From Candidatus Omnitrophota bacterium (GTDB taxonomy: Bacteria; Omnitrophota; Gorgyraeia; Zapsychrales; Zapsychraceae), in assembly GCA_035292445.1 (NCBI GenBank), contig DATDQB010000013.1:82132-146131 (forward strand): 64,000 nucleotides of DNA, written 5' to 3'. The notes beneath the pieces are model-generated. The model did no database searches, had not been told where the DNA came from, and saw only the letters and a list, made by a program, of their open reading frames with translations. Every line of letters begins with the position of its first letter. Position 1 is the first letter of the stretch. Below, piece by piece: positions 13,075-31,605 of this stretch. Position numbers and translations under genes: made by a program.

Positions 13075-13086
13075 TTTTCTTTAACC

Positions 13087-14250: not shown

Positions 14251-14386
14251 TATTAAAAATCCCAAGACACAAGATACAAAAAAACCAAACAATATCCAAA
14301 TTTCAATATTCAATTTCCAAACAGTTTGGTCATTTGAATTTGTAATTTTGTATTTGTTTGTATCTTGTTTCTTGTATCTTGGAAAT

Positions 14387-14423
14387 TAAAAAGGCGGTCT
14401 CCTTACGGAAACCGCCTTTTTTG
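14387..14423. terminator. Bidirectional rho-independent terminator serving tRNA-His (plus strand) and giant gene C (minus strand)
   Basis: AAAAAGGCGGTCTCCTTACGGAAACCGCCTTTTTT: a 6-bp GC stem (GGCGGT/ACCGCC) flanked by an A-run upstream and a T-run downstream. Confidence 0.7.
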
Positions 14424-14588
14424 CATTGCTTCTTAACCTACCGTGGCAGAGTTTTAAGGTGCTGCCCCTTGCCACCTTATTACCCACGGAGAATTTAAGA
14501 AGGTGCCCCACATTCGTTTGCGTCCTTCGTCACTCTTCCTTCGTCCATCGTGACACGATTAACGAAGGACGATAGACGAGGGACGAAC

Positions 14589-17500
14589 TTATCCTTTAAA
14601 TATCGCTATCCTATCCAACACATCCCTCAGCGTGAACTTGCGCATCGAAAGCGCTGGCGCTTTCTCTTCCTCATCCTGTGCCTGCTCGATCGGTTCATCC
14701 GGAATAAAATCTGCGATTCCCAACAGCATCGGCATATTATTGATCGGCGCGATGTTAATGATCACGGGAATAAACCCGTCAATATGAATATTTTGCAGCG
14801 GTTGCATCTCAACCGGCAGCGGAATGCCGCGGCCGTCGCGCTTAATTTGCAGGTTAAGAAGCGCCGGGTTCAAATCAATACCGCCGACCGGCGTTGTTTC
14901 TTGAGCTGTTACAGCTCTATCAATGCCGGCCGATGATGAGACGTCCTCTTCCTCTGAAGGAAAGTTGACAATTAATTGACCTTCCAAAAATTCACGGATA
15001 ATCCTTCTAAATTTAATCTCCCGCACCTTAAAATCTCTTGCCGAGTTTATGTGGGTTGCTCTTGTCAGATCTCCTTTTGAATAAAGATCCGGCGCATCTT
15101 CGCTTAGCGGGGTGCTCAATTCTTTACCATCAAGATAATGGATCAACCGGGCGAGGAGCCCGACGCGATCGCCAAATAATTCTTCATCGCCCATTTCTTC
15201 CAGTAAATCCTCGGCGATCTCCCAAGCTTCCGCAGGCGTCAGCATCGCGCCGTCGCCCTGCTCCGTCATGGCGGCATCGATGCTGACAATTGTATGATCG
15301 ACTTCCACCGGGAAGATCTCGGCTTTCAGTTCATTTCCAACGTTATAAATCTTAATCACCACGGATGTTTGGCCGCCTTCCGTTGCCTGCGTTCCAGTTT
15401 GACCAAAAACCCAATCATTGGCTATGACAGTAAAAATACCAACAACATCGCCTTTTACATCTTGTTCCGTAAAAAATTTTTGCCCATTAAGAATTGCTCC
15501 GGCATCACCATAGCTTTCCCGTATAACACGAAGCTCGGATGCCTCAGCTAACTTAAAATTATAGCGTTCGGAAAGGTCAGGCAATTCTTCTCCAGCAGCG
15601 TTTTTATTCATTTTGGCGTTATAAACCCGAACCCCGGCCACAGCGCCGATATATTTTGCGGCACCGGCAATCGCTAAGTTCATAAATCCTTCGGCCGAAC
15701 CGCCAACGGTTATAACTGTTTTGTGGACACCATAAGAACGCCCTGTTGCGGCCTCATAAAGAGCCGGTGTTAACGTCGCCCTTAACCCATGTGCAACAGT
15801 TCCATCCTGAAGCGTCTTTTGAACAACGCTCACACCTTGTATTCCATATTCTTGCTTAACCTCTTCAATGGCTCGTACAAAAGCAGTTTCTCGTTTACGG
15901 TTCATCACGATAATCTCTTCCTGAACTTGCGAGAGTTCTTGTCTACGAATAGCGGCCAAAAACTTAAGGTACGCCAAAATGCCTTCTTTAGGGTGAGCCG
16001 CATATAATTCAGGATCGTAAAGATGGTATTTTTCCCCACCCACTTCAACAGCGGCTGCCCTTAACGCGTCGGCATCTTCACCCACATTCGTAATAAACTG
16101 ATGAACGTATCCATCGGGGACGTTTCCTAAATCGCGCACACCGCGCCCGACAACAATATCGCTATTGGCTCCCGCCTCATTTTCCGGAGCTTCCTCCAAG
16201 GATCTGTTGCCAGAATTGGTGACAAACTGATTAGTCCCTTCGACCACGTCGATAATGGCATCAAGAATCGGATAATACCGGCCATTTTCGCTTAGGTAGA
16301 ATTCATCGCCACGGTCAATGGCCGCTTTAATGGCTTCGACTTCGTGTTGGATCAAGTTAGGCATAATGACTTCATTGGATTTTAAGCTTTCCGCCACTTC
16401 ATCCCGGCCGAAACCTTCGGAAACACGAACCATCATAATGATACCCAGTTCTTTGATAGTCCGTTCAAAAATCCTTTTGGCGAAACCATCGACCACATCT
16501 GTAATGGCCGTTTGCATTCTTTTTAATTCATCTTTGGCAATGGTTCCTTCTTTCCCCAAAACCATTATTGCTACTTCCGCAAATTCGCCCCTTTGCGTCG
16601 TTTGATGAAGTTGAGTAAATAACAATGCGATCTGCGTCCGCTGCTCAGATGTATCAGAGACACTTTTAACAACATCTAAAATTTTTTGATAAGCACCTCG
16701 TAAACCAAGAGCGGTTAATTTGGCGGCCGTGTGTGTTGTCAATATAACAGGCAACTCATCACGAATGGCGCGTAATCTCGTTGCTTCTTCTTTGTTTGGC
16801 TGTGCCGCCATCGCGGCGTCAAAATCCCTAATCATCTGCCCTAACTGTTCATTATCAATGTTGACCTGGACCATCCGGCCATAAACATCAACACGGGCAA
16901 CGAAGGCCTCAACGCCGATGCGCTCAATTAACGCATCGTACTCATCCATGACACCTAAGCTGGCTGCCTGGATCCTGAAGGAGGCGCGGACGAACTCGTT
17001 CTGCGCCGCTTGTTCGTTAACAAAATCCCCATTAAGGACCGTTAAAGCGGTCTCCTTGGAAGCCCTAGAGAAGGAAGCAGCATAGCGCCAAGGCGCTCCC
17101 ACCCGCTTCGCTTCTTTCACAATGGCATTTAAATTGCGGGCCGCCTGATCAGCGGTCTGCCCCCCTGATAAAAAGACAATCGTGCCTAATTCCGGAGGAA
17201 GACTATCCATATGCACGGCAACAGTCGCTCTAGCCACTTCTTCGGGTGTATCTTTAGGCGCTTTATCACCCGAGGTGACCATGCTCACTTTAATCGCGCT
17301 GCCTTTCAAATCAACCCCTAGGCGGCTGGCGGCTTCCGTATAAACCTTAAGAATACGCCTGTTCGCCTCTGCGCTGGCTTCAATATCATGAGAGCCTTTA
17401 ATCAACACCTCTGGCTCAGGCGTTGGGACCCTTCCTAATAACTGAACATCTAAAACATGTTGGGCCAACATCTCCATATTCGCTTCGATATTACGTTGCG

Positions 17501-20500
17501 TCGGAAGACCAGCATCTGTATCAATCGTAAATGTTTGACGGAATTTATCGGCATGAGATGTGGGTATCATATCCATAATCGCACGAAGGTTATCGATCCC
17601 CAAACCTTTTGGTTTAGAGAGCTTCTCGGGATCAAGGCCTTCACGGCTTGGCCGAGGGCTCTGTGTATCATCATCGATACCCCGATCAGTTTTATGGATA
17701 ATGCTTATCCCTCTTCCTTCCACGTGGGTGGCTAAAAGAGGCTTGTCTTCATCATCCACATAGCTGACGGATTCATCCTGGACAATAATGCCGCCAAAGA
17801 CATACTGGATGCCTGGGGCGGTATAGAACATCCTTCTCATTCTTTCGCGAAGAAGATAGTTCGCGCCGTCGACTTTATCAGCATCCGGATAAGCCTTTGC
17901 ATCCACTATCTTAAAACCGTATCTTTTAAGAAGTGCATTGCCTGTTGATGGAGACCCATCCGAAGCAAAGTAGTTACGGCCTCGCCCCGTCAGGCTTTGT
18001 ACTCTTTCACGAAGAAGGGTTTTTTGGACATCCGTCAACATCGCGTGATCTTCGTCTTCCGGGGGGTATTCCGAAATTGGTCTAGGCGGTAACACCTGGG
18101 TAGCGCCTGTGTCTAAATCATCTACTTCTTCCTGTTCTCCATCGACTACGGTGCCTACAGGGTTGGGGTCGCGGTTAATTTCATCCATTACTTGGAGCAA
18201 GCCTAAACCTAAACCTGAATTGACAATCAATGCTATAACGTCATCTTCACTACTCTCTCCCAATGAAAGAAGTCGATCATAGGCATCCTTGACCATGATT
18301 CTTCCAGCTAATAAATCTTCCAGAATTCGGTCAGCCGCCATCATGGCGCTGTCGCCAGAAAGCAATTGCTCACCCTGACCAATAAGACGATTGATTCGAG
18401 CTCTTTTTTCATTAAGCTCGGATGATCCCAATTCATCCGATAATTGGCCTATCTCCAAAAGAATCGCCCTTTGTCCAGCTCTCAATATATAGAGTTCGTT
18501 CTCGATGTCTTGTGCCGGTTCGGGATAAAAGGTTTCAGGTGCAGCGAAGCGCTCCTCAATGTGATCAAGGCTGACATCCTCCAAGGGAAAAGCGACCTCA
18601 TCTGCTCCTTCCAAAGGCCTGATGCGACTGATCGCTCTCTTGAGCAACCCTTCTATCGTATGTCGGTCGGTTGTAAGTTGGGCTATCTGTTGCGCAATTG
18701 AACTTCTTTCCTCTGGTCCATCTTTGAGGCTACGCTCCCTGGTCCTTAATTGTGTAATACGGGTTCTTACGCCTATCAAGGAAATTCGCAATTTGTTGAT
18801 AAGATCCGCCAATTCATTAACAGACAGATCATGTTGTAACGCCGTTTCTTTTTCTGCAATCTGTCTATGTATTTCTCCCATTAAATCATCTTTGGCTTTT
18901 AATCCGGCCCGGTCTTTCATGGTATCGCCTTTACCACCCTCAAATGATATGGCGGCAGTTTCCCCTATAGCAACCGATGTCATGAATTCCAGCCCTCTGT
19001 TGCCGGCAAAAACCTGCGGGTTGATCGACATGCCGCTTTTTTGCTTACGGCCGATCTCTTGCCACTGGGCCAGCCCGTCCATACCGTCCCTTAAATATCC
19101 CCCTTTACCGTCAGTCCCTTGCAAAAACTGCATGGTAGCGGCGTGTAGGAATGTGGATCCGCCGTAGGTGATAAAATTGAACTGGGAATATTTTCCCTGT
19201 TCCGGCAGAAATGCCTTTCTTTCTTCCGGCGTCATTAGACGACTCCCATCCTCGGTTTTGGCAAGCGGCCAATAAAAGGACGGCGACGTGTTATTTGCTT
19301 TTATTCTGGTTGTCGCATCCAGTAAACCCACGGCATCATCATGAGCTAGGTCTAACTCTTGAAGCGCTTTTAAGGCATATGAATAACTGTCCGGATCAAC
19401 TGGCCGGTTATTGTGATATGTTTCGATAATTTTCTCTACCTGAGTTTTAATTCGATCTCGAAAAGCCTGATCAAATCTTTCAAGAATTTCGTCATACCAG
19501 CCTTCGGCAAACAATAAGCGTCTGGCTTCCGCATCCAGGGCGGTTGACCACTGCTTGACTTCGCCAATATGCGGATGGTGCTGCTCAAACCAAGAAATGT
19601 CCGTATATGGCAAGGCTGATTTGGAACGGGCAATGGCCATTTCCATGCCGCTATTGATCATCCAAATGGTACGGCTTCTCTTCTCTACCGAACGGGTGAG
19701 CTGGAAATCCCATAATACGTTGATCGTGCCTGAGAAAGCTTCAGGCGCTTCATCCACCAACTGGATTTGACTGCTGTCGATGAGGCGAATTCCGATCTCT
19801 CTGGCCTTTGCTTTTACCAGATCGAAAAATCTTACGTCTCTTTCATAAGGTATAGCCGCAACAAAAGCTCTCCATTCTTCAACCGTCATACCAATCTTAT
19901 CCTGATTTGCGGCGATAGTTCTTGCCACAATTTCATCGATCGTCAAAAGATTGGCCATGATCTTCCATTGATTATGGACCTTTTGTAATTCGGAAGCCTC
20001 TAGCCCTGATTGATTGGCAGCCGTGATAACATCTTGATAGGTTTGGACCCTACCTTTGCTATCGTGAATCAAAGGTATATACTTCTGCCAGTCAGATCTA
20101 AACCGGGTGATTGTTGCCGCTATCTTTTCAGCCGGCATTTTTTTGGCAACCAGGTCTTTTTCCAATGCTTTGACTGCTTCTTCCAGACGTTCAGCTTCAT
20201 CGGCCTCAGTAACACCAAGAATAAATTTCTGATCACGTCCGTCATCATGGCCCGTGATCCATTCGGCCGATTCGGCATCGGTCCGGGCAACGATCAACGT
20301 ATTAAGACCCATGCGGTCAAACTCAAAACGGGCCTCAAGAAGTGTTTTGATCCAATGATCCGTACTATCGAGGACTTTGCCGCTCATATGCCCGCACATT
20401 TTACATCCGTGAGCTTGATCTTCAATGTGGACTGCGGCGATATGTGTTTCTTCCTCGCCCATTGACAGAACCCTTCGTGCCATCTCCTGGACCTTTAAAT

Positions 20501-23500
20501 GTCCTTCGTCAAAATCAACAAAGATAGGCACGTAGAAATCAACCGGTCTAACAAGAGAACGTTGTTCAGGCGTCATTTGGGCCCTGGCGATCTCCTGATA
20601 AATGGCATGCCATGTATTTAGCTTTGAGATCCTGGCAGCCAGTATACCCAAATAATCATATTGGTCCCGGGCACGGTCTCCTTTGCCTCTGAGCATTTGT
20701 GCATCCCATCCACCCAGATAATAGCCTTCAATATGCTTAAACAAATTCTGTTGCAGAAGAGCGAATATAATGCCGGATCTTTCTTTGAAAGCGTCATCGA
20801 TCCTTTCGTAATATTCCTGCTTTACATTCTCCATCATGGAGAACGAATCCTGAATAACACCCGTTTCAGCATCGATGAAGCCTAATGATGCTAAATGATT
20901 ATACAGGGCATCAACTTCATAATCATAAGCCACATCTAATAATTTTGTCTTTGTGATAGGTTCGGCTTGAAGAATTTCGGATACAGCCATGGCTTCGGCC
21001 ATCAATTCATTGCTAGGGCCGAAGGTATCGATGGATTTTACATCCCTGAAATACCTTCGCAGCTTGCCATTAAATTTCTCGGCCATATGGTTGGCGATCG
21101 ACCATGTTCTTAAAACAGGGCCTTGCGCAGCCGCGACTTTTTCTGCGCTCCAAACACGCTTGATCCAGCGGCCTTCGGCTCTTTGCTGGTTCCATCGCTC
21201 CTGCATGATTTGCGCTCGTTCTTCTAAAGAAGCCACCATCGCCGCATCGCCGCCCATGCGGGCAACCATGCCGCCTTCAGGTCCGGGTATATTCATCTGG
21301 GCAACTAACGCTTCATATCGCGCCAACACTTCAGGGCTAAGCGCCCCTGTGAAACGCTCTTTCCCCACCTCGATCATAGCCCACACGTCTCTTAATCGGC
21401 TTGAAACTGTCCCTTTCACATCTCCAAAGGTCGGCACCTCGTTATAGCGTTCTTCAGGATCTCTGGAACGGGCCCATTCCTCATCATTCTTGTCTTTTAT
21501 TTTTTCCCATCTTTTAATTAATCCCGCCAATTCATCTGGAAGTCTGGCAAGTTGCTCGATAGCCGATTTTCTATCCACACGATTGAGCTTATCGACACTC
21601 ACCTCTTTGCCTAAAAGAGCCGCTAAAAACGCTAATTCTTTCTCAGCCCTATCAAGATCCGCTTCTACTTGCGCTTCATACATCCCGCCTGGAAGCGCTC
21701 TGTCATATTGCGCTTTAAATCCTGCGACGCTCTGTAATAACCAATTAAAATACTCCTCGGCAACGGCCCTAGCATCCACCGCCATCGCCGCGTCACCTTC
21801 TTTGGGAGTTCCCTTCTGATCTCTCTCCCTCAATGACGCTATTATACCTCTCATATGTTTTTCAGAAGCAGCGGGTTCTTCCGGTACTAACTCACCACTT
21901 AAAGGATCTCCCCTGACAAACCTGGGTCCAAGTTCCGGCGCCCTATCTTTATCGCTGGCCGCCATCGCCGCGGCTGAAGTTAGTGAAGTTATCCTTTCCC
22001 GTATCTCTCGAATGGCCAGTTCGGTTTGTTCCTTTTCACCTTCCAGCCCCTCGACAATGACGACCTGATCTTGATATTCCACTAATTCATTTCCAATTTG
22101 TCCTAAACGCTTTTCCAGTTCTGCGATGGCACCTCGAAGCTCATCCGCCGTTCGGTATCCTTCCTCGCTGGTAAGAACGGCTTCTAAAATCCTGACCGCC
22201 CCCATCGCATTATCAATGCTGTCATCCCATTGCGCTCTTGTCCGATCAATTGTTTCCTCAAGCACTCTTTCCTCTTCCAATAAAGACGGTAAATCACCAA
22301 TGTCTCCATCTTCATATTTTGCTTTTTCTATTCTTTCTCTAACTTGAGCAAGTCGATCAATCGCGCGAAACCATTCTTTTTGGGCAGACTCATCCCCCAC
22401 CATCGCCGCGTCGATTGGTTCTTGAGAAGTCCCGCCTCTTTTTCCAAGGTGACCCATTTTTTTACGTTGAGTAAAAAGTATATCCCCTGCCGCGGCGTCA
22501 ACGGCCCGAAACATATTATCAAATGTTTCCCCATAAGCTAATTCGGCGATACGATGAGGATCCATCCGTAATTTATCCAATCTTTCAAATCCAACACTGT
22601 CCAAATTTTGTAGAATACTCGATTCAGGATAGTAGCTTCTTCTTCGCGAGTCATCGAAATCGGCTATTTTACTCAAAATATAACTGTTAGAAGCCTCTTC
22701 ACTTTGTAATCGATCTCTGAATCGGTATAAGACCCTCCTTCGCTCTGGCTCCATTAAACTTAAATAATCTAACGCCCTTGTAACTTTATCTCTTAACTGT
22801 AAATCATCAAACTGGGAAACAAAACGTTTTGCATTCTTCGGAAATTGATTACTAATACGCATAGCCCGAAAGTCTAGGGAAATCATACCTTCAATGACCG
22901 AATAGTCCTCAATCCTATCCAAAAGGATCCGTGTTGAGAAATAATCAGACAGGATCATAGCTTCAAAGATATCGGCATCCCTGTATCTTTCTGTTACCGC
23001 CATCGCCGCGTCGGTTTCCGCCACAGAGACAACCGTCTTTTCAACAAGTCTTTCTAAAGTCTCCGTAACTTCTTTAATTTTGCGTTGCAGGGGTCCTATT
23101 TTATCTTGATCATAAGCGGCAAGGGTTCTGAAGCTCAAAACGTCACCGGAACTGCGAGGTATTAAGATTCGGTAAAAGGTCTGAATCGCTTCTTGGGCTG
23201 TCGTTAAAGGTACATTTTGACCGCCTGAATCTCGAATGGCCCTTTGAAGCGTTTGAATCATCTCCAACAACCCAACCCCTTCTTCTCTGATTCTAGCGTC
23301 TTCAAAAGCTACTACCATTTCTTTAAGTTCTTCCAATTGCGCCGCCACCATCGCCGCGTCACCTTCTTTGGGAGTTCCCTTCTGATCTCTCTCCCTCAAT
23401 GACGCTATCATGTCTGTCATATGTTCTATAGAAGCAGGTTCTTCAGGTACTATCTCACCAGTTAAAGAATCTCTCCTGGCAACCCTGGGCCCCAATTCCG

Positions 23501-26500
23501 GCGCCCTGTCATCTGACTTTCCAGCCGCCATCGCCGTGTCGATATAATTCCCATCACGTAGCGCATTGGCTATTTTTTCAAGCTGCTCTTCAATAATTGA
23601 ATTTGACGCCTCCTCGCCTTGAGGATTAAAAGGAGCATACCCCGCAGCAACCGTTTGTAATCTTTCTTGCAAATTCAAAAGTTCTGCTCTCGTCAACACG
23701 CCGCTTTCCACTCGAATCTCTTCTTCCGGCGTCAACATCGCCGCATCGGCAAGCTGGAACGGAGCAAATAAAATTCGCCGATCATACAGGTTGTCCGCAT
23801 TATCGTGGATAGCAAAAAATCGTTTCAACTTTCTTTTTACATCAATTAATGTTCTGTCATCAAGGGTTGTGTTAAAAACAATGGATTCATGAAGCACCAT
23901 ATTCTTTGAAGTGATAATGCTTTTATTGATTTCTCTGGCAATGGCGATATCTTCATCGCTAAATCCCGATTCCATATATCTGGCCTGGGTATTTCTAGCG
24001 ACTTCATCCATAATTTGGCTTAAATATTCCCATGTAATGATTGTGCCTGTATCTGGGCCTTCCTGCACCTTGGCCCCCGATTTAATCAACGTCCACAGCC
24101 AATATTGGGCTTTCTTGGCCGTAGCTAAATCAAACATGGTTCTTCCGCCATTATGCAAGTTGTCTACGGCAACAGCCGCTCCTTGTTTTCGATAACCTAG
24201 CGTATATGTCAGCAGTTCATATAAGTTCTTATATATTTCAGCTCTCGCTATATTTCCCTCTGGAACATGTAATAAATCGGCATATAACCCTTCATTATAA
24301 ACAGGCGGCGCCACTTCCATTTCTTCAACATCGGCTCGGAAGATTTCGTTTTCTTTGGGAATGGCGATTGGTGTCGCTGCCCAAGCTTGAAGTTTGCCTT
24401 GTTTGCGTTCATCTATTTTGTCACCTATAAATCCTGTGGTAGCTATTTCATCCGCGGCCGGGTCCATCGGCGCTCCATCTGGATATCTGCGTGAGGTCAT
24501 TCCCGTCCACATGCCGCCTTCAGGATGAACACCGCGTTTTTTACTGGCCGATAAATTAAGGCCTGTATAAGGTCTAAACGGTTTGTCTTTCATGCCTATT
24601 TTATCCAATCCCGGCCATACGCGTTTCTTCAAAAACCAAGCGAGTCGTATCGCTGAAGCACCCCAATCCCAACGTCCATCATTCGAAAACTTGATATGAT
24701 GGCGGCCTGCCCAGAACATTAATTCCAGCATTAATGTCGCCTCTTCGACTTCATGCATAAAAATAAGATTGATCTCTTCTTTAAGACCTAAAAACTCCTT
24801 TGTTTCAATGGCCGTCTCCACAAACAATTTTACTTCTTCCCAATGCTCCAATTTCGGCACAACAATATCAATGCCTTGTCTCGGATCGGCTTCTAAAGCC
24901 TCGAAATTAGGTTCAACATAATACGCCAAGTCTCTCATCATCATTGATACCGGCATACCCTTATAGGATTCATGCCGTGACCACAATTGCAATCCGCTTG
25001 GCCTTTTTGTTACTGTCGGCCAATATTTCCTGGGTAATACTCTATAAATTTTATTTTTGTCTCCATGTTTTACGCTCTTGAGTCTTCCGTTAATAATATC
25101 GGCACCGATTTGGTGTTCGGCAAACCTTTTGTCACTATCTATTCCAGCGGCATCTTCATCGTCACCAAAGATTCTTACAGGTCTCATCGCTTCTATATAT
25201 TCAGCTATCGCTGGATTACCCTCAATAATTGCTATGATTTCTTCATCAGTTTTTTCCTTTAAACTTATTCCAAACTTCTTTTCCACTTCATCCAATACAT
25301 TTGACCCAAACGCACTCAAGGCAAAAAATAGATTCCATGGACCTGACAATATGCCGCCTGCTTTTGTTAACCTTTCTGGCGCTTCGTCGACTTTCCAATC
25401 CCCTTCTAATATTTCACGCACGGTCAAAGTATTTCCATACGCATCGCTCACCTTATCATCCATATTAGGAATATAAGAATTTTCTCCGCGCTCAGCCGCG
25501 TTTATTCTTTCCCCGCGTTTCTTTAATAACTCGAGCTGCCGCTCGCCGAACTTCTCCATTAAATGCGCTATTAATGCCTGGCTTCGCGGATTTATGATTT
25601 TTCCACTTCCGACATCTCCTTCAAATTCGCTTAAATCTACGGCCTGTCCTTTTTGATCCAACACCTCTCTAATATCTAAATCCTCTACGCCCGCCACCAT
25701 CGCCGCATCGCTGGTCGTCAGCAGCCGGATGTGATCAGGCTTATCTGAATAGTCATCGAATAGTAATGCCTCATTGCGGATGAACGGAACAATATAGGCG
25801 TGAGACGATTGGAACTGCACTTTCGGTTTAACGAGCATGATCTGGCCTTGATTCGCGGGGACATCTTCCCGGCGGAACACGGGCAGCTTATCAAAGTCAG
25901 GATGGACAACAATTCTTGATGCCAGAGAGCGCGCGACCCTTTCAATGATATCCTGGTATCCTTTTAAACGTTTATAGTCATCCGATATGGTTGGTATCCT
26001 GCCCAGAACAACATCTAATATGCTCCAGTAAATTTGATAATCAATAAGGTCTTGAGCTTCTCTGTAAACGGAATTAAACCTACCATTGACTTGACTGATG
26101 GCAGAGTGAACTCTTCGACGGACTATGGTAATGGTATTTAAATGGCCTTCCGTAATGGGAGTGATCCCGTGGCGTTCCGCCACCTCCAATAACTCCTTTA
26201 GATCATCCGCATTCGGCGGTTCTTCTCGCCATATTTCCGGCCTGCGCGCAAGACGCTGCTGGCGCTCAGCATCCGTTGCGGTGGACGGATCTGTAATGAC
26301 CGCCTGGTCGGCCAACCGGCTGCTAGCCTCATCGACCGCCAATTGGGCGCTGTCACCGGCAATTGTTTCTAATAAATCAACATCCGTATCAAAAAAACGG
26401 CCCGTGGGGGAAGAAGCATTGATAACCTGCTGTTGGACAGCCTCAGGAAATTGGCCTAAATCGCCTTCTATTTCGGCTACCAACATCGCCATGTCCCTGC

Positions 26501-27587
26501 CATCAACGCCCCCTGAGAAATATTTACGCGGGATGATGTCTTTTGTCGCCGGGTCATAGTCTTCCCTAATAAAGTTATAGACGCCTTTCTTGAAGGCATC
26601 GAGGTATTGCTCATAGATCTTATTCTTGGCGTCCTTATCTTCAATATCAATGCCGCGGATCTTGTTTTTGTCCACGTAAACCTGGCCTAAAAGAGAATTT
26701 TTCAGGTTCATCTTGTACCACGTCGCCAAGATCATGGAACTGTAGATCTGGCGTAAACTGGCAAACGTCTTGCCTTCATTGACTTCCTTTTCGATCTCGG
26801 GGATAACAACATCCTTAAGAATCTGGGATTGGATGGAGCTCATTTCAGTCGTCAGTCGTCGGTCGTCAGTCGTCAGTAACTGATGACTGACGTCTGATGT
26901 CTGATGACTTAATGCCAAATAGTCTTCCTCCAGCATGACCTTCAAATGGCTTTCAACGACAAAAGCGGTGCCGTTATTTTCATACACCAGCGCGCGGTCA
27001 GGGACGATCCATACCTTATTAAAGGTATTCATCGGGATGTTGGTCGTGCCGAATTTCTCGTAGGCCTTATCTTTGACGCGTTGCCAGAATTCTTTGCCCA
27101 GCTCCTGATCGGGGTGGATCAAAGACGCCGTCAATTGTTTGAGGATATAATCCTGCGCTAAAAGGTCGCGGCCCATTTCGGTCGTACCAAAAGCTTGGGG
27201 AATGATACGGTCTTTCTCATAAGGGGAAAGATTTACCCAGAGTTCTTTTTCGGGAACGGTCAGGGAAGCCAAGAAGTATTTAACTAATCTATTCGCTTCT
27301 TCGCGAAGCTCTTCGCCCTCGAGGCTCGTATGGCCAGTATCAACAATAAAATTAAAATGTAGGGGATTAACGGGATCGATCGTGATGCCTTTGACCATGG
27401 CCGGCATAAAGCCAGGGCTTGGGGAAACCATCACCCCCGGAGCCGGTAAATTAAGATATGTGGGTACGCCTTGGGCGTAAACGGATGCAGGCGGCGTGAC
27501 AGAGCTAAAGATAAAGGTAAAGGCGATAAAAGCGGATAAACCTTTGTGGAATCGGGTATTTCTTCTTCGCTCGAGAAAGCTTATCAT
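14589..27587 (-). CDS. Giant multi-module secreted protein, paralog C (4332 aa): signal peptide, conserved N-module, unknown modules, malate synthase-like module, repeated linker modules, isocitrate lyase module, unknown and coiled-coil region, class I fructose-bisphosphate aldolase module, possible GlpX-like module, conserved C-module.
   Basis: A 13 kb uninterrupted ORF with AGGGGGA upstream of the ATG at 27587 and signal peptide MISFLERRRNTRFHKGLSAFIAFTFIFSSVTPPASVYAQ. Malate synthase motif: HHIKFSNDGRWDWGASAIRLAW. ICL signature: HIEDQAHGCKMCGHMSGKVL plus LIVARTDAESAEWITG and YYLGGWDAQ. Class I FBA motifs: GRGRNYFASDGSPSTG, LKGSAIKVSMVTSGD (Schiff-base Lys context) and IVFLSGGQTADQAARNLNAIVKEAKRVGAPWRYAASFSRA. 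The C-terminus is VGGIDLNPALLNLQIKRDGRGIPLP...GFIPVIINIAPINNMPMLLGI. Confidence 0.85.
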   Translation of the reverse strand: MISFLERRRNTRFHKGLSAFIAFTFIFSSVTPPASVYAQGVPTYLNLPAPGVMVSPSPGFMPAMVKGITIDPVNPLHFNFIVDTGHTSLEGEELREEANRLVKYFLASLTVPEKELWVNLSPYEKDRIIPQAFGTTEMGRDLLAQDYILKQLTASLIHPDQELGKEFWQRVKDKAYEKFGTTNIPMNTFNKVWIVPDRALVYENNGTAFVVESHLKVMLEEDYLALSHQTSDVSHQLLTTDDRRLTTEMSSIQSQILKDVVIPEIEKEVNEGKTFASLRQIYSSMILATWYKMNLKNSLLGQVYVDKNKIRGIDIEDKDAKNKIYEQYLDAFKKGVYNFIREDYDPATKDIIPRKYFSGGVDGRDMAMLVAEIEGDLGQFPEAVQQQVINASSPTGRFFDTDVDLLETIAGDSAQLAVDEASSRLADQAVITDPSTATDAERQQRLARRPEIWREEPPNADDLKELLEVAERHGITPITEGHLNTITIVRRRVHSAISQVNGRFNSVYREAQDLIDYQIYWSILDVVLGRIPTISDDYKRLKGYQDIIERVARSLASRIVVHPDFDKLPVFRREDVPANQGQIMLVKPKVQFQSSHAYIVPFIRNEALLFDDYSDKPDHIRLLTTSDAAMVAGVEDLDIREVLDQKGQAVDLSEFEGDVGSGKIINPRSQALIAHLMEKFGERQLELLKKRGERINAAERGENSYIPNMDDKVSDAYGNTLTVREILEGDWKVDEAPERLTKAGGILSGPWNLFFALSAFGSNVLDEVEKKFGISLKEKTDEEIIAIIEGNPAIAEYIEAMRPVRIFGDDEDAAGIDSDKRFAEHQIGADIINGRLKSVKHGDKNKIYRVLPRKYWPTVTKRPSGLQLWSRHESYKGMPVSMMMRDLAYYVEPNFEALEADPRQGIDIVVPKLEHWEEVKLFVETAIETKEFLGLKEEINLIFMHEVEEATLMLELMFWAGRHHIKFSNDGRWDWGASAIRLAWFLKKRVWPGLDKIGMKDKPFRPYTGLNLSASKKRGVHPEGGMWTGMTSRRYPDGAPMDPAADEIATTGFIGDKIDERKQGKLQAWAATPIAIPKENEIFRADVEEMEVAPPVYNEGLYADLLHVPEGNIARAEIYKNLYELLTYTLGYRKQGAAVAVDNLHNGGRTMFDLATAKKAQYWLWTLIKSGAKVQEGPDTGTIITWEYLSQIMDEVARNTQARYMESGFSDEDIAIAREINKSIITSKNMVLHESIVFNTTLDDRTLIDVKRKLKRFFAIHDNADNLYDRRILFAPFQLADAAMLTPEEEIRVESGVLTRAELLNLQERLQTVAAGYAPFNPQGEEASNSIIEEQLEKIANALRDGNYIDTAMAAGKSDDRAPELGPRVARRDSLTGEIVPEEPASIEHMTDMIASLRERDQKGTPKEGDAAMVAAQLEELKEMVVAFEDARIREEGVGLLEMIQTLQRAIRDSGGQNVPLTTAQEAIQTFYRILIPRSSGDVLSFRTLAAYDQDKIGPLQRKIKEVTETLERLVEKTVVSVAETDAAMAVTERYRDADIFEAMILSDYFSTRILLDRIEDYSVIEGMISLDFRAMRISNQFPKNAKRFVSQFDDLQLRDKVTRALDYLSLMEPERRRVLYRFRDRLQSEEASNSYILSKIADFDDSRRRSYYPESSILQNLDSVGFERLDKLRMDPHRIAELAYGETFDNMFRAVDAAAGDILFTQRKKMGHLGKRGGTSQEPIDAAMVGDESAQKEWFRAIDRLAQVRERIEKAKYEDGDIGDLPSLLEEERVLEETIDRTRAQWDDSIDNAMGAVRILEAVLTSEEGYRTADELRGAIAELEKRLGQIGNELVEYQDQVVIVEGLEGEKEQTELAIREIRERITSLTSAAAMAASDKDRAPELGPRFVRGDPLSGELVPEEPAASEKHMRGIIASLRERDQKGTPKEGDAAMAVDARAVAEEYFNWLLQSVAGFKAQYDRALPGGMYEAQVEADLDRAEKELAFLAALLGKEVSVDKLNRVDRKSAIEQLARLPDELAGLIKRWEKIKDKNDEEWARSRDPEERYNEVPTFGDVKGTVSSRLRDVWAMIEVGKERFTGALSPEVLARYEALVAQMNIPGPEGGMVARMGGDAAMVASLEERAQIMQERWNQQRAEGRWIKRVWSAEKVAAAQGPVLRTWSIANHMAEKFNGKLRRYFRDVKSIDTFGPSNELMAEAMAVSEILQAEPITKTKLLDVAYDYEVDALYNHLASLGFIDAETGVIQDSFSMMENVKQEYYERIDDAFKERSGIIFALLQQNLFKHIEGYYLGGWDAQMLRGKGDRARDQYDYLGILAARISKLNTWHAIYQEIARAQMTPEQRSLVRPVDFYVPIFVDFDEGHLKVQEMARRVLSMGEEETHIAAVHIEDQAHGCKMCGHMSGKVLDSTDHWIKTLLEARFEFDRMGLNTLIVARTDAESAEWITGHDDGRDQKFILGVTEADEAERLEEAVKALEKDLVAKKMPAEKIAATITRFRSDWQKYIPLIHDSKGRVQTYQDVITAANQSGLEASELQKVHNQWKIMANLLTIDEIVARTIAANQDKIGMTVEEWRAFVAAIPYERDVRFFDLVKAKAREIGIRLIDSSQIQLVDEAPEAFSGTINVLWDFQLTRSVEKRSRTIWMINSGMEMAIARSKSALPYTDISWFEQHHPHIGEVKQWSTALDAEARRLLFAEGWYDEILERFDQAFRDRIKTQVEKIIETYHNNRPVDPDSYSYALKALQELDLAHDDAVGLLDATTRIKANNTSPSFYWPLAKTEDGSRLMTPEERKAFLPEQGKYSQFNFITYGGSTFLHAATMQFLQGTDGKGGYLRDGMDGLAQWQEIGRKQKSGMSINPQVFAGNRGLEFMTSVAIGETAAISFEGGKGDTMKDRAGLKAKDDLMGEIHRQIAEKETALQHDLSVNELADLINKLRISLIGVRTRITQLRTRERSLKDGPEERSSIAQQIAQLTTDRHTIEGLLKRAISRIRPLEGADEVAFPLEDVSLDHIEERFAAPETFYPEPAQDIENELYILRAGQRAILLEIGQLSDELGSSELNEKRARINRLIGQGEQLLSGDSAMMAADRILEDLLAGRIMVKDAYDRLLSLGESSEDDVIALIVNSGLGLGLLQVMDEINRDPNPVGTVVDGEQEEVDDLDTGATQVLPPRPISEYPPEDEDHAMLTDVQKTLLRERVQSLTGRGRNYFASDGSPSTGNALLKRYGFKIVDAKAYPDADKVDGANYLLRERMRRMFYTAPGIQYVFGGIIVQDESVSYVDDEDKPLLATHVEGRGISIIHKTDRGIDDDTQSPRPSREGLDPEKLSKPKGLGIDNLRAIMDMIPTSHADKFRQTFTIDTDAGLPTQRNIEANMEMLAQHVLDVQLLGRVPTPEPEVLIKGSHDIEASAEANRRILKVYTEAASRLGVDLKGSAIKVSMVTSGDKAPKDTPEEVARATVAVHMDSLPPELGTIVFLSGGQTADQAARNLNAIVKEAKRVGAPWRYAASFSRASKETALTVLNGDFVNEQAAQNEFVRASFRIQAASLGVMDEYDALIERIGVEAFVARVDVYGRMVQVNIDNEQLGQMIRDFDAAMAAQPNKEEATRLRAIRDELPVILTTHTAAKLTALGLRGAYQKILDVVKSVSDTSEQRTQIALLFTQLHQTTQRGEFAEVAIMVLGKEGTIAKDELKRMQTAITDVVDGFAKRIFERTIKELGIIMMVRVSEGFGRDEVAESLKSNEVIMPNLIQHEVEAIKAAIDRGDEFYLSENGRYYPILDAIIDVVEGTNQFVTNSGNRSLEEAPENEAGANSDIVVGRGVRDLGNVPDGYVHQFITNVGEDADALRAAAVEVGGEKYHLYDPELYAAHPKEGILAYLKFLAAIRRQELSQVQEEIIVMNRKRETAFVRAIEEVKQEYGIQGVSVVQKTLQDGTVAHGLRATLTPALYEAATGRSYGVHKTVITVGGSAEGFMNLAIAGAAKYIGAVAGVRVYNAKMNKNAAGEELPDLSERYNFKLAEASELRVIRESYGDAGAILNGQKFFTEQDVKGDVVGIFTVIANDWVFGQTGTQATEGGQTSVVIKIYNVGNELKAEIFPVEVDHTIVSIDAAMTEQGDGAMLTPAEAWEIAEDLLEEMGDEELFGDRVGLLARLIHYLDGKELSTPLSEDAPDLYSKGDLTRATHINSARDFKVREIKFRRIIREFLEGQLIVNFPSEEEDVSSSAGIDRAVTAQETTPVGGIDLNPALLNLQIKRDGRGIPLPVEMQPLQNIHIDGFIPVIINIAPINNMPMLLGIADFIPDEPIEQAQDEEEKAPALSMRKFTLRDVLDRIAIFKG
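21780..21985 (-). repeat. Internal ~200-nt direct repeat within giant gene C, copy 1; the other copy is at 23340..23550 (~88% identical). Each encodes a duplicated ~65-aa linker segment.
   Basis: CCATCGCCGCGTCACCTTCTTTGGGAGTTCCCTTCTGATCTCTCTCCCTCAATGACGCTAT... occurs at both loci. The protein copies are AAMAASDKDRAPELGPRFVRGDPLSGELVPEEPAASEKHMRGIIASLRERDQKGTPKEGDAAMAVD and TAMAAGKSDDRAPELGPRVARRDSLTGEIVPEEPASIEHMTDMIASLRERDQKGTPKEGDAAMVAA. Confidence 0.8.
26845..26925 (-). repeat. Hairpin-forming short tandem repeat (TCAGTCGTCAG/CTGATGTCTGATG units) inside the N-module of gene C; a homologous insertion sits at 4050..4125 in gene A.
   Basis: Gene C has CAGTCGTCAGTCGTCGGTCGTCAGTCGTCAGTAACTGATGACTGACGTCTGATGTCTGATGACT. 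Gene A has GTCATCAGTCGTCGGTCATCAGTCGTCAG...CTGAAGACTGATGTCTGATGTCTGATGACTGAT. Both are imperfect inverted repeats built from 8-11-nt units. They encode SDVSHQLLTTDDRRLTTEMSS and SDISLQSTHENLTTDDRRLMTQ, which are absent from paralogs B and D at the same position. Confidence 0.7.
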
Positions 27588-27899
27588 TTTTTATTCCCCC
27601 TAAGATTTAAAAATTGTTCCCGCAATTGTATTTTCATCGTTACCAGTGATTTGAACCATCGAAAGCGTTTTCCCGCATCAGTTTAAAAAATGGCCGCACA
27701 AAATAAAGGACCGTGCAACCAAACAAGCGAAGGCACACGAAAAGCCTCAATGCTCGTCGAGAATTAAAAATAAACTGTGATATTAGGAAAACAACTTTTC
27801 AGGAGGACATTTACATCGGGTCAGATCGACCCCCGTGGCAGGATAAATAAACGTCTCTCAACAACTCTTATTGTTGCCACAAATATAACACAACAAAAT

Positions 27900-30800
27900 T
27901 TACCTGTCAAGCCCTAATTCTTGCTGCATGTTCAGATCGCGTTCCACCCGCGTGATCACCGGCTCAAAGCCACCAAGGTTTAAATTTTCAATGGTGGAGG
28001 CTGCAATCGTCATTTGGACGCCGTTCCCCTCCCGCTGAACGACCAAATTCAACATAGCCATATTCAAATCAATACCACCCCTACTATCCCTGTTACCCGT
28101 ATCAAGCTGGGCCATGCCGCGCCCTATAACCTGAGCCATATTAGAAATTAGCCTCTGCTCTCTGATACGAGCCAATGAATCGGCAGAGATATTCGGTCTT
28201 TGCTGTAATACTGATAACAACCTTTCTTCTCCCCCATCAAAGGCTTGGGGATTATTTCTAGCTAAATCGCCAAAAGCGGTCACGATAGGTTCAAAATCAA
28301 TCGATTGAATACCACTGGCACTCATAACTTGTTCAGCCATGGGTCTAAAGACATCTTGGAAGACTTGGGGATTGGCTATATTTTGCGGCATCAATCTTAA
28401 GAGGGTATCCGACTGCTGCCTCGCGCTGGAAACCTCTCCAAATTGCCGAACCACAAAAGCGTTCGAAGCCTTTTCCGCGGTTTCAGGAGCGGCTCCTACT
28501 TCACGTAGGCCTGCTTGAAATTCGCTTAACGAACGTAGCGCTGCTGGATTTCTTTCGGCTAGTTGCGCAACCTGGCCGGGCAATGCCTGGATTTCCTCAG
28601 ATGTAAATCGAAGACCGAATTGAGACACCTCTGGCGCCCGTAAAGAGTCCCTATAATCATCTTCAAAGGCCTGCCCCATAGCCGCCTCTACAACAACACG
28701 GGCAAGTGTAGGGTTATAGCTCATCCGATCCCCAGCAGAAGAGGATTCAGCAACCGCCTGGTAAATCCGCCCAGACAGCCCTTCGCTATTATCTATAACA
28801 ATACCTGCCATTCTTTGGGCAAGCGGCTCAGCCACGTTCAAACTCCGTAATTCGGTCAAATAAGTGCTTCTTAAGCCATCGCGGTCTCCCAAGAGCTCAG
28901 GCTTGGCAAGGACATTCACTAATGCCTGCGCCGCCGGCTGGGCTTCCGATGGGTTAAGAGGGGTTGTCCGATTAAGCGCCTCGGCTACATTAATAACATT
29001 CGTTCGTTGATCTCCAACCAACGCAAATCGCGTCGAAGAACTGGCCAAATGGCTATCAACACCTTTGAATTCCTCCGCTTGCCCGGCCAAATTATTAATC
29101 CGGTCAATAACTTCTTTGGTAGCGACCCGGCTCGCCAAATTACGGACAGAATCTTCAGGCATCTGCGGCTGCGCGATCCTTAAGCCTTCGGTTATTTTTT
29201 GCTCGAGTTGATCCAATGACCCATATTCGCGTAAATTTTGCATTACAGGTGTAACAGCTGCAATTTCATCTTCATTAAAATTATCCGTCTGCAAAGCGGA
29301 CGTCACAATGCTTTGCATACGCGGCTGATTGACGGCGTAAAGAACAGGCATAACGGATATTTGCATATTGAATTGATAACGGCCCTGGGTTTGGTCGGCC
29401 ACTTCGCGCATGGTATCCAAATCCGAGGCAATTCTTGCGGCAGTAACAGCCGTCGGCCGGTCGATGCCCTCCCTTTCCAAGCCAGCGGTAATGGCCGCTT
29501 CGTATTGAATAGGCGTTGAGAAAGCTTCCGGTGATTGCGTCCTAAGGCGTGTTATGACTTGAGCTGTTGTTGCCGCTACAGATCGGGCTTGGGCAGGTTC
29601 GATTTCTCCTTCTCCTATTAATCTATTCGCTACGCTCGCGCTATACGCATTGCCGGCTAATTGTTGATTGGCAGCAATACCGCTGGCGACATCAACTAAT
29701 ACCGGCTGAGGCGTTGAGCGTTCAAAAACCGTTTGGGCTAAAGATGGCAGGCTCTTTTCGACCGTAGGGAGTGTTTGTTGGGAGATCCCTCGAGAGCTTA
29801 AAACACTCATAATCTCTTGAGTGGTACTTCGCGGCGCCCGGCGTAACGTGTCCCCCACTATACCCACCACTAAACTAATTTCTTCCTGCGGCACTCCTTG
29901 CTGCCCTAAAGAACGCCCAAGCTCGGCATTAAAAGAAGGAGCGTTTGTCCTAAGAACGGCAGCCATATTAGGCAAAGTGATGCCCATGTCTTGTGCGGCG
30001 TTTGGTTCCCGGTTTCCCAAGGCGAAAGAGACTCTTGCAACCCTTTCAGGGTTAGTCGTGGCTCTTTCCAACAGCCTATTGACCGAAGTCATCATAGCCT
30101 CATCAAGGCCGGCTTGGGCCAAGGGTACTTCTGCGGAAACCTGCGTTGTCCCTGCCCGAACGACTTGAGCCGCTCGATCCCCCGCAAAACCTCCCGAATA
30201 ATACCGCTTCGGCACCAAAGAAAATGTCTCCAAATCAAATTCTTTTGTCGTATACTCATAAGCTCCCTGCTGGAATGTCTCCAGATATTTATCAAAAATC
30301 TTTTCTTTAACCGCCCTGTCTTGTGTGTCTACGCCTTCAATTTTATTCTTATCGACATACACTTGGCTTAAAAAACTCTCTTTCAAATTTTGTTTATACC
30401 ACGTTGCCAGAATCATGGCATTGTAAATCTGCCTTAAATTGGCGAAATTCTCCCCTTCATTGACTTCTTTTTCAATTTCCGGAACAATGACTTCCCTGAC
30501 AACATTACTGGCAATAGCATTGATCTTCTTGACGTCATCTTCCTGCATCCGGTCCGTGCCGAATTTCTTATTATCCATATTTTCCTTTAATCCCAAATAA
30601 TCTTCCTCTAGCATCACTTTTAAATGGCTGTCCAAAACAATGGCGTTGTTACCTCTTTCTAAAACAACCGCTTGATCAGGGACAATCCAAATCTTGTTAA
30701 ATGTGTTCATCGGTATGTCAGAAGCGCCGTAGAGCTCGTTGGCTTTGCTTTGGACTTTTTGCCAGAACTCTTTTCCTAACTGATTTTCGGGATACATTAA

Positions 30801-31268
30801 AGATGCGGTGAGCTGCTTGAGAATATAATCCTGGGCTAAAAGGTCGCGCCCCATTTCTGTATACCCGAGATTTCTGGGAATAATCCGATCTTCTTCATAG
30901 GGAGAAAGATTAACCCATAACTCCTCTGAAGGAACGGTAAGAGCTGCCAGAAAATATTTGACAAGCTTATCAGCCTCTTCTTTCAGGGCATCTCCATCAA
31001 TATTCACATCACCCGTATCGATAATAAAATCGAATTTTAATGCATCGTCGGAGTTGACGGTTATCGCCTTAATAAGAGGTGGCGTGAATATTGGACTTTG
31101 GGTAAGCAATGTCCCCGGCGTGGGTAGCTGCAGGGCGCTGGAACCGACGGTTTGAGCGGAACTAAGATAGGGAGTTAAAACAAGGTGGCAGGAGAAACAA
31201 AGCACTGTTAAACAGCTTAAAAATCGAAAGCCTGGTTTGCTTCTTTTTCTTCGGGATAAAACTTCCAT
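27900..31268 (-). CDS. Giant-family paralog D (1122 aa), the minimal member: signal peptide, conserved N-module, ~700-aa low-complexity Ala/Gln/Ser/Thr-rich region, conserved C-module.
   Basis: GAGGA/GGTGGA lies upstream of the ATG at 31268. Signal peptide: MEVLSRRKRSKPGFRFLSCLTVLCFSCHLVLTPYLSSAQ. The N-module shares TVPSEELWVNLSPYEEDRIIP, TEMGRDLLAQDYILKQLTASLMYPE and PEIEKEVNEGENFANLRQIYNAMILATWYK with the other paralogs. The C-terminus is GGIDLNMAMLNLVVQREGNGVQMT...GGFEPVITRVERDL. Confidence 0.8.
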   Translation of the reverse strand: MEVLSRRKRSKPGFRFLSCLTVLCFSCHLVLTPYLSSAQTVGSSALQLPTPGTLLTQSPIFTPPLIKAITVNSDDALKFDFIIDTGDVNIDGDALKEEADKLVKYFLAALTVPSEELWVNLSPYEEDRIIPRNLGYTEMGRDLLAQDYILKQLTASLMYPENQLGKEFWQKVQSKANELYGASDIPMNTFNKIWIVPDQAVVLERGNNAIVLDSHLKVMLEEDYLGLKENMDNKKFGTDRMQEDDVKKINAIASNVVREVIVPEIEKEVNEGENFANLRQIYNAMILATWYKQNLKESFLSQVYVDKNKIEGVDTQDRAVKEKIFDKYLETFQQGAYEYTTKEFDLETFSLVPKRYYSGGFAGDRAAQVVRAGTTQVSAEVPLAQAGLDEAMMTSVNRLLERATTNPERVARVSFALGNREPNAAQDMGITLPNMAAVLRTNAPSFNAELGRSLGQQGVPQEEISLVVGIVGDTLRRAPRSTTQEIMSVLSSRGISQQTLPTVEKSLPSLAQTVFERSTPQPVLVDVASGIAANQQLAGNAYSASVANRLIGEGEIEPAQARSVAATTAQVITRLRTQSPEAFSTPIQYEAAITAGLEREGIDRPTAVTAARIASDLDTMREVADQTQGRYQFNMQISVMPVLYAVNQPRMQSIVTSALQTDNFNEDEIAAVTPVMQNLREYGSLDQLEQKITEGLRIAQPQMPEDSVRNLASRVATKEVIDRINNLAGQAEEFKGVDSHLASSSTRFALVGDQRTNVINVAEALNRTTPLNPSEAQPAAQALVNVLAKPELLGDRDGLRSTYLTELRSLNVAEPLAQRMAGIVIDNSEGLSGRIYQAVAESSSAGDRMSYNPTLARVVVEAAMGQAFEDDYRDSLRAPEVSQFGLRFTSEEIQALPGQVAQLAERNPAALRSLSEFQAGLREVGAAPETAEKASNAFVVRQFGEVSSARQQSDTLLRLMPQNIANPQVFQDVFRPMAEQVMSASGIQSIDFEPIVTAFGDLARNNPQAFDGGEERLLSVLQQRPNISADSLARIREQRLISNMAQVIGRGMAQLDTGNRDSRGGIDLNMAMLNLVVQREGNGVQMTIAASTIENLNLGGFEPVITRVERDLNMQQELGLDR

Positions 31269-31514: not shown

Positions 31515-31605
31515 TTATATTTTTTGAATAGTGGCGCTTAGTATATCATTGGGTTTTGAAATTTGCAATTACTGTAAAATTACCCACTTATGCTATAATA
31601 CCGCC

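Follow-up and report, generated by a model that had tools for sequence, protein, structure and literature searches.

Giant proteins of the Omnitrophota with triosephosphate isomerase (TIM), PGI, FBPase, PGM, FBA, and pyruvate phosphate dikinase (PPDK) domains were described by West-Roberts et al. (bioRxiv 10.1101/2023.11.21.568195), who predicted these proteins to be extracellular and proposed that they are cleaved into several products, with the cleavage points stated to be unknown. A 2026 preprint (10.64898/2026.06.07.730766) recognized a "multi-enzyme metabolic cluster" class among proteins of at least 10 thousand amino acids (kAA), and showed the internal repeats to be mostly old and diverged. 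Here, we describe a 64,000-nucleotide (nt) stretch of contig DATDQB010000013.1 from a Candidatus Omnitrophota bacterium, referred to below as the window, and within it a gene for a long multi-enzyme protein, gene C, in which a short unit bounded by the motif D-x-A-M has been duplicated.

Gene C resembles the Omnitrophota multi-enzyme long proteins in its source, recorded as "Candidatus Omnitrophota bacterium", and in the many enzyme families that tile a single polypeptide, none of which is dominant. The giant proteins have a signal peptide, and the N-terminus of gene C looks like one in sequence. Internal repeats are common in the Omnitrophota giant proteins, and gene C also contains one. However, the giant proteins comprise at least 10 or at least 30 kAA, whereas the gene C product consists of 4332 amino acids (aa). 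The hallmarks of the Archaeovorin-type proteins of more than 30,000 aa, (10.1101/2023.11.21.568195) are glycosyltransferases, methylases, peptidases, NUDIX, SecA-DEAD, and C39 domains. None of these was identified in gene C by Pfam, and gene C likewise lacks S8 and dockerin domains; a methyltransferase is present in the fourth paralogue in the window, and a NUDIX domain at locus L024. Gene C also differs from the published giant proteins in that its family is defined by an N-terminal domain (N-domain), a C-terminal domain (C-domain), and D-x-A-M junctions. Term searches of 10.1101/2023.11.21.568195, 10.64898/2026.06.07.730766, and Seymour et al. 2023 (PMC10066038) retrieved no passage on a shared N- or C-domain family or on a junction motif. 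Taken as a whole, gene C is a smaller relative of the Omnitrophota multi-enzyme long proteins.

The multifunctional autoprocessing repeats-in-toxin (MARTX) toxins of Vibrio have conserved N- and C-terminal regions, a variable array of recombining modules, and short junction sequences between the modules. They are the closest mechanistic analogy to gene C, in the way it may work. Unlike in MARTX, no glycine-rich RTX repeats (HemolysinCabind), no Peptidase_C80 cysteine protease domain, and no linked type I secretion genes were detected, and the cargo is central-metabolic rather than toxic. Bifunctional proteins in which malate synthase is fused to isocitrate lyase exist in eukaryotes, Euglena and nematodes among them, and gene C likewise has both enzymes on one polypeptide. 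However, the pair in gene C is located in a far larger, putatively exported protein, with a spacer of 833 aa between the 2 enzymes and with an aldolase and other modules in addition. Intragenic segmental duplication with gene conversion is a general phenomenon in large modular and repeat proteins. The repeats in gene C conform to this pattern in being direct and in frame, with unrelated flanks and mosaic divergence, but differ in that the unit is delimited on both sides by a junction motif and is not a folded repeat domain.

Gene C Contains a Duplicated Junction-to-Junction Unit

The gene C protein starts with a signal-peptide-like N-terminus and the N-domain, which are followed by malate synthase, isocitrate lyase, class I aldolase, and the C-domain, in that order. 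A direct-repeat search of positions 14000-28000 together with gapped blastn identified 2 direct, in-frame repeats within this gene, at 21776-21970 and 23342-23536. In a blastn search of the whole window against itself, 167 of 198 aligned nt in the 2 copies were identical (84.3%), with 2 codon-sized indels and an E value of 3.7e-48. The pair was the sole internal nucleotide repeat of gene C in this comparison, and the remaining self-matches of the window corresponded to paralogous N-domains and C-domains and to tRNA genes. The spacing from start to start is 1566 nt, or 522 codons, and the reading frame of gene C runs through both copies. It was also noted that the direct-repeat search returned 2 adjoining families, of which the first (21776-21871/23342-23437; 96 nt) is 91% identical between the copies and the second (21867-21947/23430-23510; 81 nt) is 84% identical.

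The products of the 2 copies are 62 to 63 aa each and share 45 of 63 residues (71%), including the peptides DRAPELGPR and VPEEPA and all of the C-terminal 20 residues. The nucleotide similarity stops no more than about 7 nt from the x-A-M motifs at both ends, and the protein sequences that flank the 2 copies are unrelated. At the upstream boundary of copy 2 the motif reads AAAM, with A in place of D. On these sequence data, one unit delimited by junctions has been duplicated in frame, and the copies have diverged as a mosaic. A preliminary description of the window, made from the sequence alone, had reported a duplicated peptide bounded by D-x-A-M motifs, and its coordinates agree with ours to about 15 nt. 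The identity of about 88% given there is slightly above the 84% found overall, and its term "linker" was a guess; the unit extends from one junction to the next and is part of an orphan region.

We consider it likely that exactly one such unit (x-A-M, about 58 residues, DAAM) was duplicated in a modular multi-enzyme protein, by recombination and with later conversion. In this protein family, the N-domain with its predicted signal peptide and the C-domain bracket a variable string of complete cytoplasmic-type enzymes, and in this lineage the modules each start at D-x-A-M. We infer that the duplication most likely occurred by unequal or illegitimate recombination between microhomologies that encode the junctions, an event that would keep both the reading frame and the module boundaries, and that after the copies had diverged to a synonymous divergence (dS) of about 0.3, the 61 nt beside the downstream DAAM were re-homogenized by gene conversion.

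The D-x-A-M Motif Separates Modules

The motif D-x-A-M occurred 15 times in gene C, compared to 0.8 occurrences expected from the composition, and 7 times in the paralogous gene A, compared to 0.3 expected. Of the 29 occurrences in a six-frame translation of the window, 25 were located in the 4 genes of the family. None of the motifs in genes C and A, or in the family open reading frames (ORFs) of another locus, L010, fell within a Pfam or NCBIfam enzyme envelope. Locus L010 contained 2 such ORFs with 17 and 10 copies, mostly as D-x-A-M-L, and its acyl-CoA dehydrogenase, PPDK, and PGM modules each had a motif on both sides. A recurrent short motif was found at every module boundary, as in a polyprotein.

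The alignments between gene C and its distant homologue at locus L007 began at the motif, once with residue 627 of gene C (DAAM) matching residue 777 of L007 (DAAM), and a second time with residue 2114 (DAAM) matching residue 1474 (DYAM). At the level of sequence comparison, these alignments showed the modules of gene C to be delimited by D-x-A-M and to differ between homologues exactly there. In several modules, the methionine of the motif coincides with the expected start of a free-standing enzyme: it was located 4 to 5 residues ahead of the start of the receiver-domain profile and at about residue 6 of human aldolase B, which places it near a native N-terminus. In the family, the invariant PRKYFSGG that ends the N-domain is followed at a short distance by D-x-A-M or by variants such as NSAIL, DRAIL, and DKAAL, and the C-domain starts with GGIDL-[N/D]-x-A-[L/M]-L.

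The alanine codon of the motif was GCG in 17 of 22 cases (28% overall), and the aspartate codon was GAC in 12 of 22 (27% overall). The junction is usually coded as GAY-GCG-GCG-ATG-G, and the 13-mer GAYGCGGCGATGG occurred 6 times in gene C, with 0 occurrences expected. Since the codons of the motif vary, selection acts on the motif at the protein level. The codon bias agrees with a spread of the junctions by copying, and the bias supplies microhomology in frame as well. Internal initiation of translation is an unlikely general cause of the ATG in the motif and was rejected because most junctions lack a Shine-Dalgarno (SD)-like element and because the real gene starts in the window lack a D-x-A context.

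An Orphan Spacer Lies Between Malate Synthase and Isocitrate Lyase

The L007 protein comprises the N-domain, TIM, malate synthase, isocitrate lyase, and the C-domain, in that order. Its malate synthase module leads straight into DYAM and isocitrate lyase, without the spacer of 833 aa. Downstream of isocitrate lyase, gene C also contains the aldolase and a further module, unlike L007. The proposal in the preliminary description that modules come and go at the junctions has thereby gained comparative support, in that the 833 aa with both repeat copies are located exactly between junction motifs in gene C, whereas the adjacent modules are contiguous in L007. Its suggestion that the repeats themselves serve as recombination substrates found no direct support.

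Two further observations concern these proteins. The order of malate synthase and isocitrate lyase on one polypeptide is kept between gene C and L007 (9558-17441), from 2 distant Omnitrophota, at 31% to 36% identity, which suggests selection that holds the 2 glyoxylate-shunt enzymes together. The triosephosphate isomerase module of L007 occupies the position where gene C has an unassigned module of 262 aa.

Pfam searches with each of its small modules at E ≤ 1 returned noise only, and a word-indexed search with aa 1285-1936 in a database of 5.8 billion proteins yielded 8000 candidates, none of them significant. A metagenome scan with the spacer region gave a single match of 38 aa (L066, 51% identity), which was treated as a chance match, and a tblastn search with the repeat peptide against 64 Omnitrophota loci gave nothing. 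For the segment between the copies, aa 1414-1871, neither a Pfam match nor a homologue was found in the Pfam and database searches. A single-sequence structure model of aa 1285-1940, with a predicted local distance difference test (pLDDT) score of 47 and long helices, was used for a coarse distinction between coil and helix. In this low-confidence model, each repeat unit opened with some 30 residues of coil, which gave way to a short helix of about 15 residues and then to coil again as far as DAAM, and the segment between the copies was mostly helical. The duplicated unit is accordingly modelled as a largely unstructured, charged peptide in a spacer that is predicted to be helical and disordered.

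The location of the copies on either side of a discrete block of 4 D-x-A-M units, within a region that is missing as a whole from L007, raises the question of whether the repeat marks an insertion instead of a simple duplication. The block, aa 1414-1871 or about 1.4 kb, could have recombined into an existing spacer unit, or a cassette could have moved, leaving the unit repeated in the manner of a target duplication, and the 13-mers at the junctions would supply in-frame microhomology for such an event. However, the base composition across the spacer region showed no discontinuity of the kind that would suggest a foreign origin of the inserted block, and neither the database nor the metagenome searches identified a homologue of the intervening block as a donor. 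One genome alone cannot separate an insertion from unequal crossing-over followed by divergence, and we regard the insertion as unlikely.

The Copies Have Diverged as a Mosaic

By Nei-Gojobori counting, dS between the copies is 0.26 and the nonsynonymous divergence (dN) is 0.19, with a dN/dS ratio of 0.74, which indicates that the duplication is not very recent and that most of the peptide is weakly constrained. The divergence is unevenly distributed: the 60-nt stretch that ends at the DAAM ATG contains 0 differences, compared to 30 differences in the other 134 aligned positions (Fisher p = 6.5e-6). The longest exact match between the copies is 61 nt (21782-21842 = 23348-23408), and within it there are zero synonymous differences across 20 codons, compared to a proportion of synonymous differences (pS) of about 0.33 in the rest of the unit. 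Because the identity extends to all synonymous sites of the 20 codons, selection at the protein level is insufficient as an explanation, and a later gene-conversion tract is the simplest reading. The tract is a candidate for either gene conversion or a nucleotide-level element, and the mosaic fits either.

The age and mode of origin given in the preliminary description can be adjusted on this basis. "Recent" holds in a relative sense only, given that dS is about 0.26 overall and, where the copies have diverged, about 0.33 per synonymous site. Its statement that nucleotide similarity implies duplication or conversion was borne out for duplication and was probably also right about conversion, although as a later event, with identity over the 61 nt that abut DAAM and a divergence of about 22% in the rest.

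The same identity of synonymous sites would also be expected if the tract had been kept by a role at the RNA level, such as regulated internal initiation or ribosome pausing, in which case the repeat would be a duplicated regulatory cassette and not a neutral linker. A common hairpin is predicted for both copies of the tract (dG -19 kcal/mol; z -2.4 and -2.1 relative to shuffled sequences), in which GCGUCAUU pairs with GGUGACGC and which includes an SD-like GGUGA that precedes the AUG of DAAM by 7 nt. GGAGG-like sites 6 to 12 nt upstream of the start codon are used by the ordinary genes of the window. However, the z-scores are modest, and the hairpin occurs in 2 identical copies only. Furthermore, the other 13 junctions in gene C have neither an SD-like element nor this hairpin, the true gene starts in the window lack the GAY-NNN-GCN context, and D and A are kept as amino acids while their codons vary. 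Taken together, we consider a role at the RNA level to be quite unlikely.

It might also be argued that the duplication is ancient and that purifying selection has preserved the peptide for its function, for example binding or docking at 2 places in the protein, in line with the identical C-terminus and the 2 conserved peptides described above. This is very unlikely, since it leaves the identity at the synonymous sites unexplained, the rest of the unit is nearly unconstrained (dN/dS of about 0.74), and searches of 64 loci from other Omnitrophota and of the large databases did not recover the peptide.

The Repeat Pair Is Present in Three Assemblies

An identical gene C protein of 4332 aa is recorded on 3 contigs. 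The 90% identity cluster of the protein has 3 members, each of which contains both diverged repeat copies: the NCBI protein HLF18321.1 from a metagenome-assembled genome (MAG), encoded on a contig of 149 kb, an ENA protein that differs by one residue, at position 419, and a JGI protein that is truncated at the 5' end. The copies are 16% diverged and 3 database assemblies agree, and on these sequence data the pair does not appear to be an assembly artifact. The locus had been called assembly-prone, which is not what the longest exact match of 61 nt and the occurrence of both copies in 3 assemblies indicate. A spurious second copy, due to collapse or expansion of a repeat or to a chimeric join, is extremely unlikely, even though the sequence comes from short reads assembled from a metagenome (contigs named k141), because the copies differ at 30 positions and by 2 codon-sized indels, their maximum shared identity of 61 nt is shorter than the k-mer of the assembler, both are in frame within an uninterrupted ORF of 13 kb, and the arrangement recurs in the NCBI MAG, in the ENA assembly with its one-aa difference elsewhere, and in the JGI contig.

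We return to the reading that a single junction-to-junction unit was duplicated by recombination and later partly converted, in a protein with modules that may be processed at the junctions. Several observations weigh against it. The strong enrichment of D-x-A-M is confined to some lineages of the N-domain family. No protease domain was found by Pfam in gene C or its paralogues, and there was no protease among the 25 most frequent domain families of 18 family members. The searches provided no close relative with which to date or polarize the duplication, and the HMMER search with aa 1285-2117 against 1.84 billion representatives, which gave 0 matches, is a weak negative result because the cluster of the query itself was not returned either. 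The 3 assemblies that contain gene C may share overlapping read sets, and the identity of the 61 nt could come from a nucleotide-level function and not from conversion.

A Tentative Role for the Junctions in Processing

As a tentative suggestion, drawn from the placement of the motif in the sequence, D-x-A-M is a candidate proteolytic site at which an exported polyprotein would be cut, probably just before or at the methionine, into enzymes and spacer peptides. The duplicated unit would in that case be a releasable spacer flanked by 2 sites. A more extensive scheme, in which cleavage at D-x-A-M (in the family approximately [D/N]-x-A-[M/L/I]-hydrophobic, and also contained in GGIDL-N-P-A-L-L at the start of the C-domain) is combined with extracytoplasmic delivery and junction-mediated shuffling, is in our opinion doubtful. 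According to this scheme, the cuts would release native-like, Met-initiated enzymes of the glyoxylate shunt, gluconeogenesis, and UDP-glucose synthesis outside the cytoplasm of the producer, where the cell of a host or of prey would be one conceivable destination. The junction 13-mer would serve as in-frame microhomology for the duplication, insertion, and loss of modules and spacers, and the duplicated unit of 62 aa would be a case of such shuffling caught in the act.

Gene C and Its Paralogues Belong to a Large Family

The coordinates of gene C, its modules, and its paralogues are collected in Table 1. Searches with Pfam and NCBIfam gave matches to malate synthase at aa 829-1226, to isocitrate lyase at aa 2282-2473 and in a second stretch, and to class I fructose-bisphosphate aldolase at aa 3247-3546. 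The aldolase module aligns to solved aldolases of the eukaryotic type and keeps EPE..L, FLSGGQ, and SFSRA, as well as the context of the Schiff-base lysine (IKVSMVT compared to LKPNMVT). As read from the sequence, the N-terminus resembles a Sec signal peptide in its basic n-region, its hydrophobic core, and its VYA-Q, features that are also present in the family consensus. A hydropathy scan of gene C gave no convincing internal membrane helix. No NCBIfam model matched the N- or C-domain in genes C, A, and D, and the fold of the N-domain gave no match.

Table 1. Positions of gene C, its parts, and neighbouring genes in the window
Feature	Residues of gene C	Coordinates	Strand	Remarks
Gene C		14589..27587	minus	4332 aa; NCBI HLF18321.1, "class I fructose-bisphosphate aldolase"
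Signal-peptide-like segment and N-domain	1-368	26484..27587	minus	Hydrophobic segment and conserved domain; ends PRKYFSGG...DMAM
Malate synthase module	631-1284	23736..25697	minus	Directly after DAAM at aa 627-630
Orphan spacer	1285-2117	21237..23735	minus	833 aa; lineage-specific; seven small D-x-A-M-ending units; includes both repeat copies
Repeat copy 1	1350-1413	23349..23540	minus	DTAM-AAGKSDDRAPELGPRVARRDSLTGEIVPEEPASIEHMTDMIASLRERDQKGTPKEG-DAAM
Identical 61-nt tract, copy 1		23348..23408	minus	Encodes IASLRERDQKGTPKEGDAAM
Segment between copies	1414-1871	21975..23348	minus	Four D-x-A-M-delimited units
Repeat copy 2	1872-1935	21783..21974	minus	AAAM-AASDKDRAPELGPRFVRGDPLSGELVPEEPAASEKHMRGIIASLRERDQKGTPKEG-DAAM
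Identical 61-nt tract, copy 2		21782..21842	minus	
Isocitrate lyase module	2118-3082	18342..21236	minus	Directly after DAAM at aa 2114-2117; KMCGH active-site motif
Class I fructose-bisphosphate aldolase module	3184-3593	16809..18038	minus	Directly after DHAM
C-terminal region	4116-4332	14592..15242	minus	Conserved GGIDLNPALLNLQIKRDG... domain
Paralogue A		5097..12530	minus	2477 aa; same N- and C-domains; UDP-glucose pyrophosphorylase, phosphoglucomutase, two response-regulator receivers
Paralogue D		27900..31268	minus	1122 aa; same N- and C-domains; 1 D-x-A-M
Fourth paralogue		3..4793	minus	Runs off left window end; N-domain, methyltransferase, start of pyruvate phosphate dikinase module; 2 D-x-A-M
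AsmA/DUF748-like genes		13087-14058, 31531-34632		Divergently oriented

Downstream of the aldolase, aa 3594-4107 (15267-16808) form a module of 514 aa that has no sequence match in Pfam or the PDB. Its first approximately 200 residues are similar to aa 1886-2089 of gene A (24% identity, E 4e-4), and the alignment begins at DAAM in both proteins. From this similarity, the module may be an uncharacterized cargo domain common to genes C and A. A GlpX-type FBPase, which had been suspected, was dropped as an assignment since there was no PDB or Pfam match.

Pairs of glycines are invariant across the family at the end of the N-domain (PRKYFSGG, gene C aa 356-363) and at the start of the C-domain (GGIDLN, aa ~4227), and thereby bracket the cargo. 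Double-glycine sites are the cut sites of C39 peptidases, domains of which are reported from other giant proteins of the Omnitrophota; no C39 domain was seen in gene C by Pfam.

Three other genes in the window encode the N-domain, with 52% to 63% identity. Genes A and D also have the C-terminal GGIDLN... domain, and the C-terminus of the fourth gene is located outside the window. The module common to genes C and A starts at DAAM in both. The 4 paralogues are arranged in a row, with nothing between them but tRNA genes (Arg, His, Pro) and the 2 divergent AsmA/DUF748-like genes, and the neighbouring genes are AsmA/DUF748-like genes, tRNAs, and housekeeping genes. The association with AsmA is not conserved in other loci, with the exception of the syntenic locus L009. 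At 40049-43037, about 9 to 12 kb from the cluster, we identified a secretin gene of the type II or type IV pilus type and a gene for an Rce1-like CAAX-family intramembrane protease with TPR repeats. A search of the other loci did not recover the latter gene, and no link is therefore claimed. A linkage of the family to the AsmA/DUF748-like genes or to the Rce1-like protease was rejected, as neither is conserved across loci.

It was also noted that the tRNA-Arg(TCT) gene at 12845-12919 is followed 160 nt later by a partial copy at 13007-13076, which is 95.7% identical over 70 nt. The partial copy, which lies after gene A and before the DUF748-like gene, was scored by Rfam as a partial tRNA (33.5 bits) and was not called by ARAGORN. 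Decay of a duplicate or a past integration event that left a scar could account for it.

When genomes were scanned with the N-domain, 64 loci were identified, with several per genome, in records titled Omnitrophota or mislabelled "Planctomycetales". At E ≤ 1e-10, the N-domain was also found in no fewer than 1329 clusters of a large protein database. Nearly all of these were unnamed or hypothetical, and no Pfam model covers the N-domain among these clusters. The cargo of 18 complete or near-complete relatives consisted of cytoplasmic-type enzymes, including PGI, PEPCK, TIM, FBPase, PGM, 4-alpha-glucanotransferase, enoyl-CoA hydratase, an AMP-binding enzyme, a pyridoxal phosphate (PLP) enzyme, and NUDIX, the latter domain being present in locus L024. 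Gene C is a member of a large, unannotated Omnitrophota family with a predicted signal peptide and N-domain, variable enzyme modules, and a C-domain.

Implications for the Omnitrophota

The multi-enzyme long proteins of the Omnitrophota are already known, and the duplication in gene C is by itself an ordinary evolutionary event. Its value lies in the breakpoints, which fall exactly on a recurrent junction motif, and this motif splits gene C and many of its relatives into complete enzyme modules. A candidate cleavage site makes the processing proposed for the giant proteins testable by N-terminomics, and with such a site giant proteins could be divided in silico before their structures are predicted.

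The names given by NCBI to gene C (HLF18321.1) and gene A (HLF18319.1, "UTP--glucose-1-phosphate uridylyltransferase") are each taken from a single embedded domain, and metabolic reconstructions of the Omnitrophota may therefore count these proteins as ordinary cytoplasmic pathway enzymes. The feature worth following is the junction motif that frames the duplication, which may mark where these proteins are cut or reshuffled.

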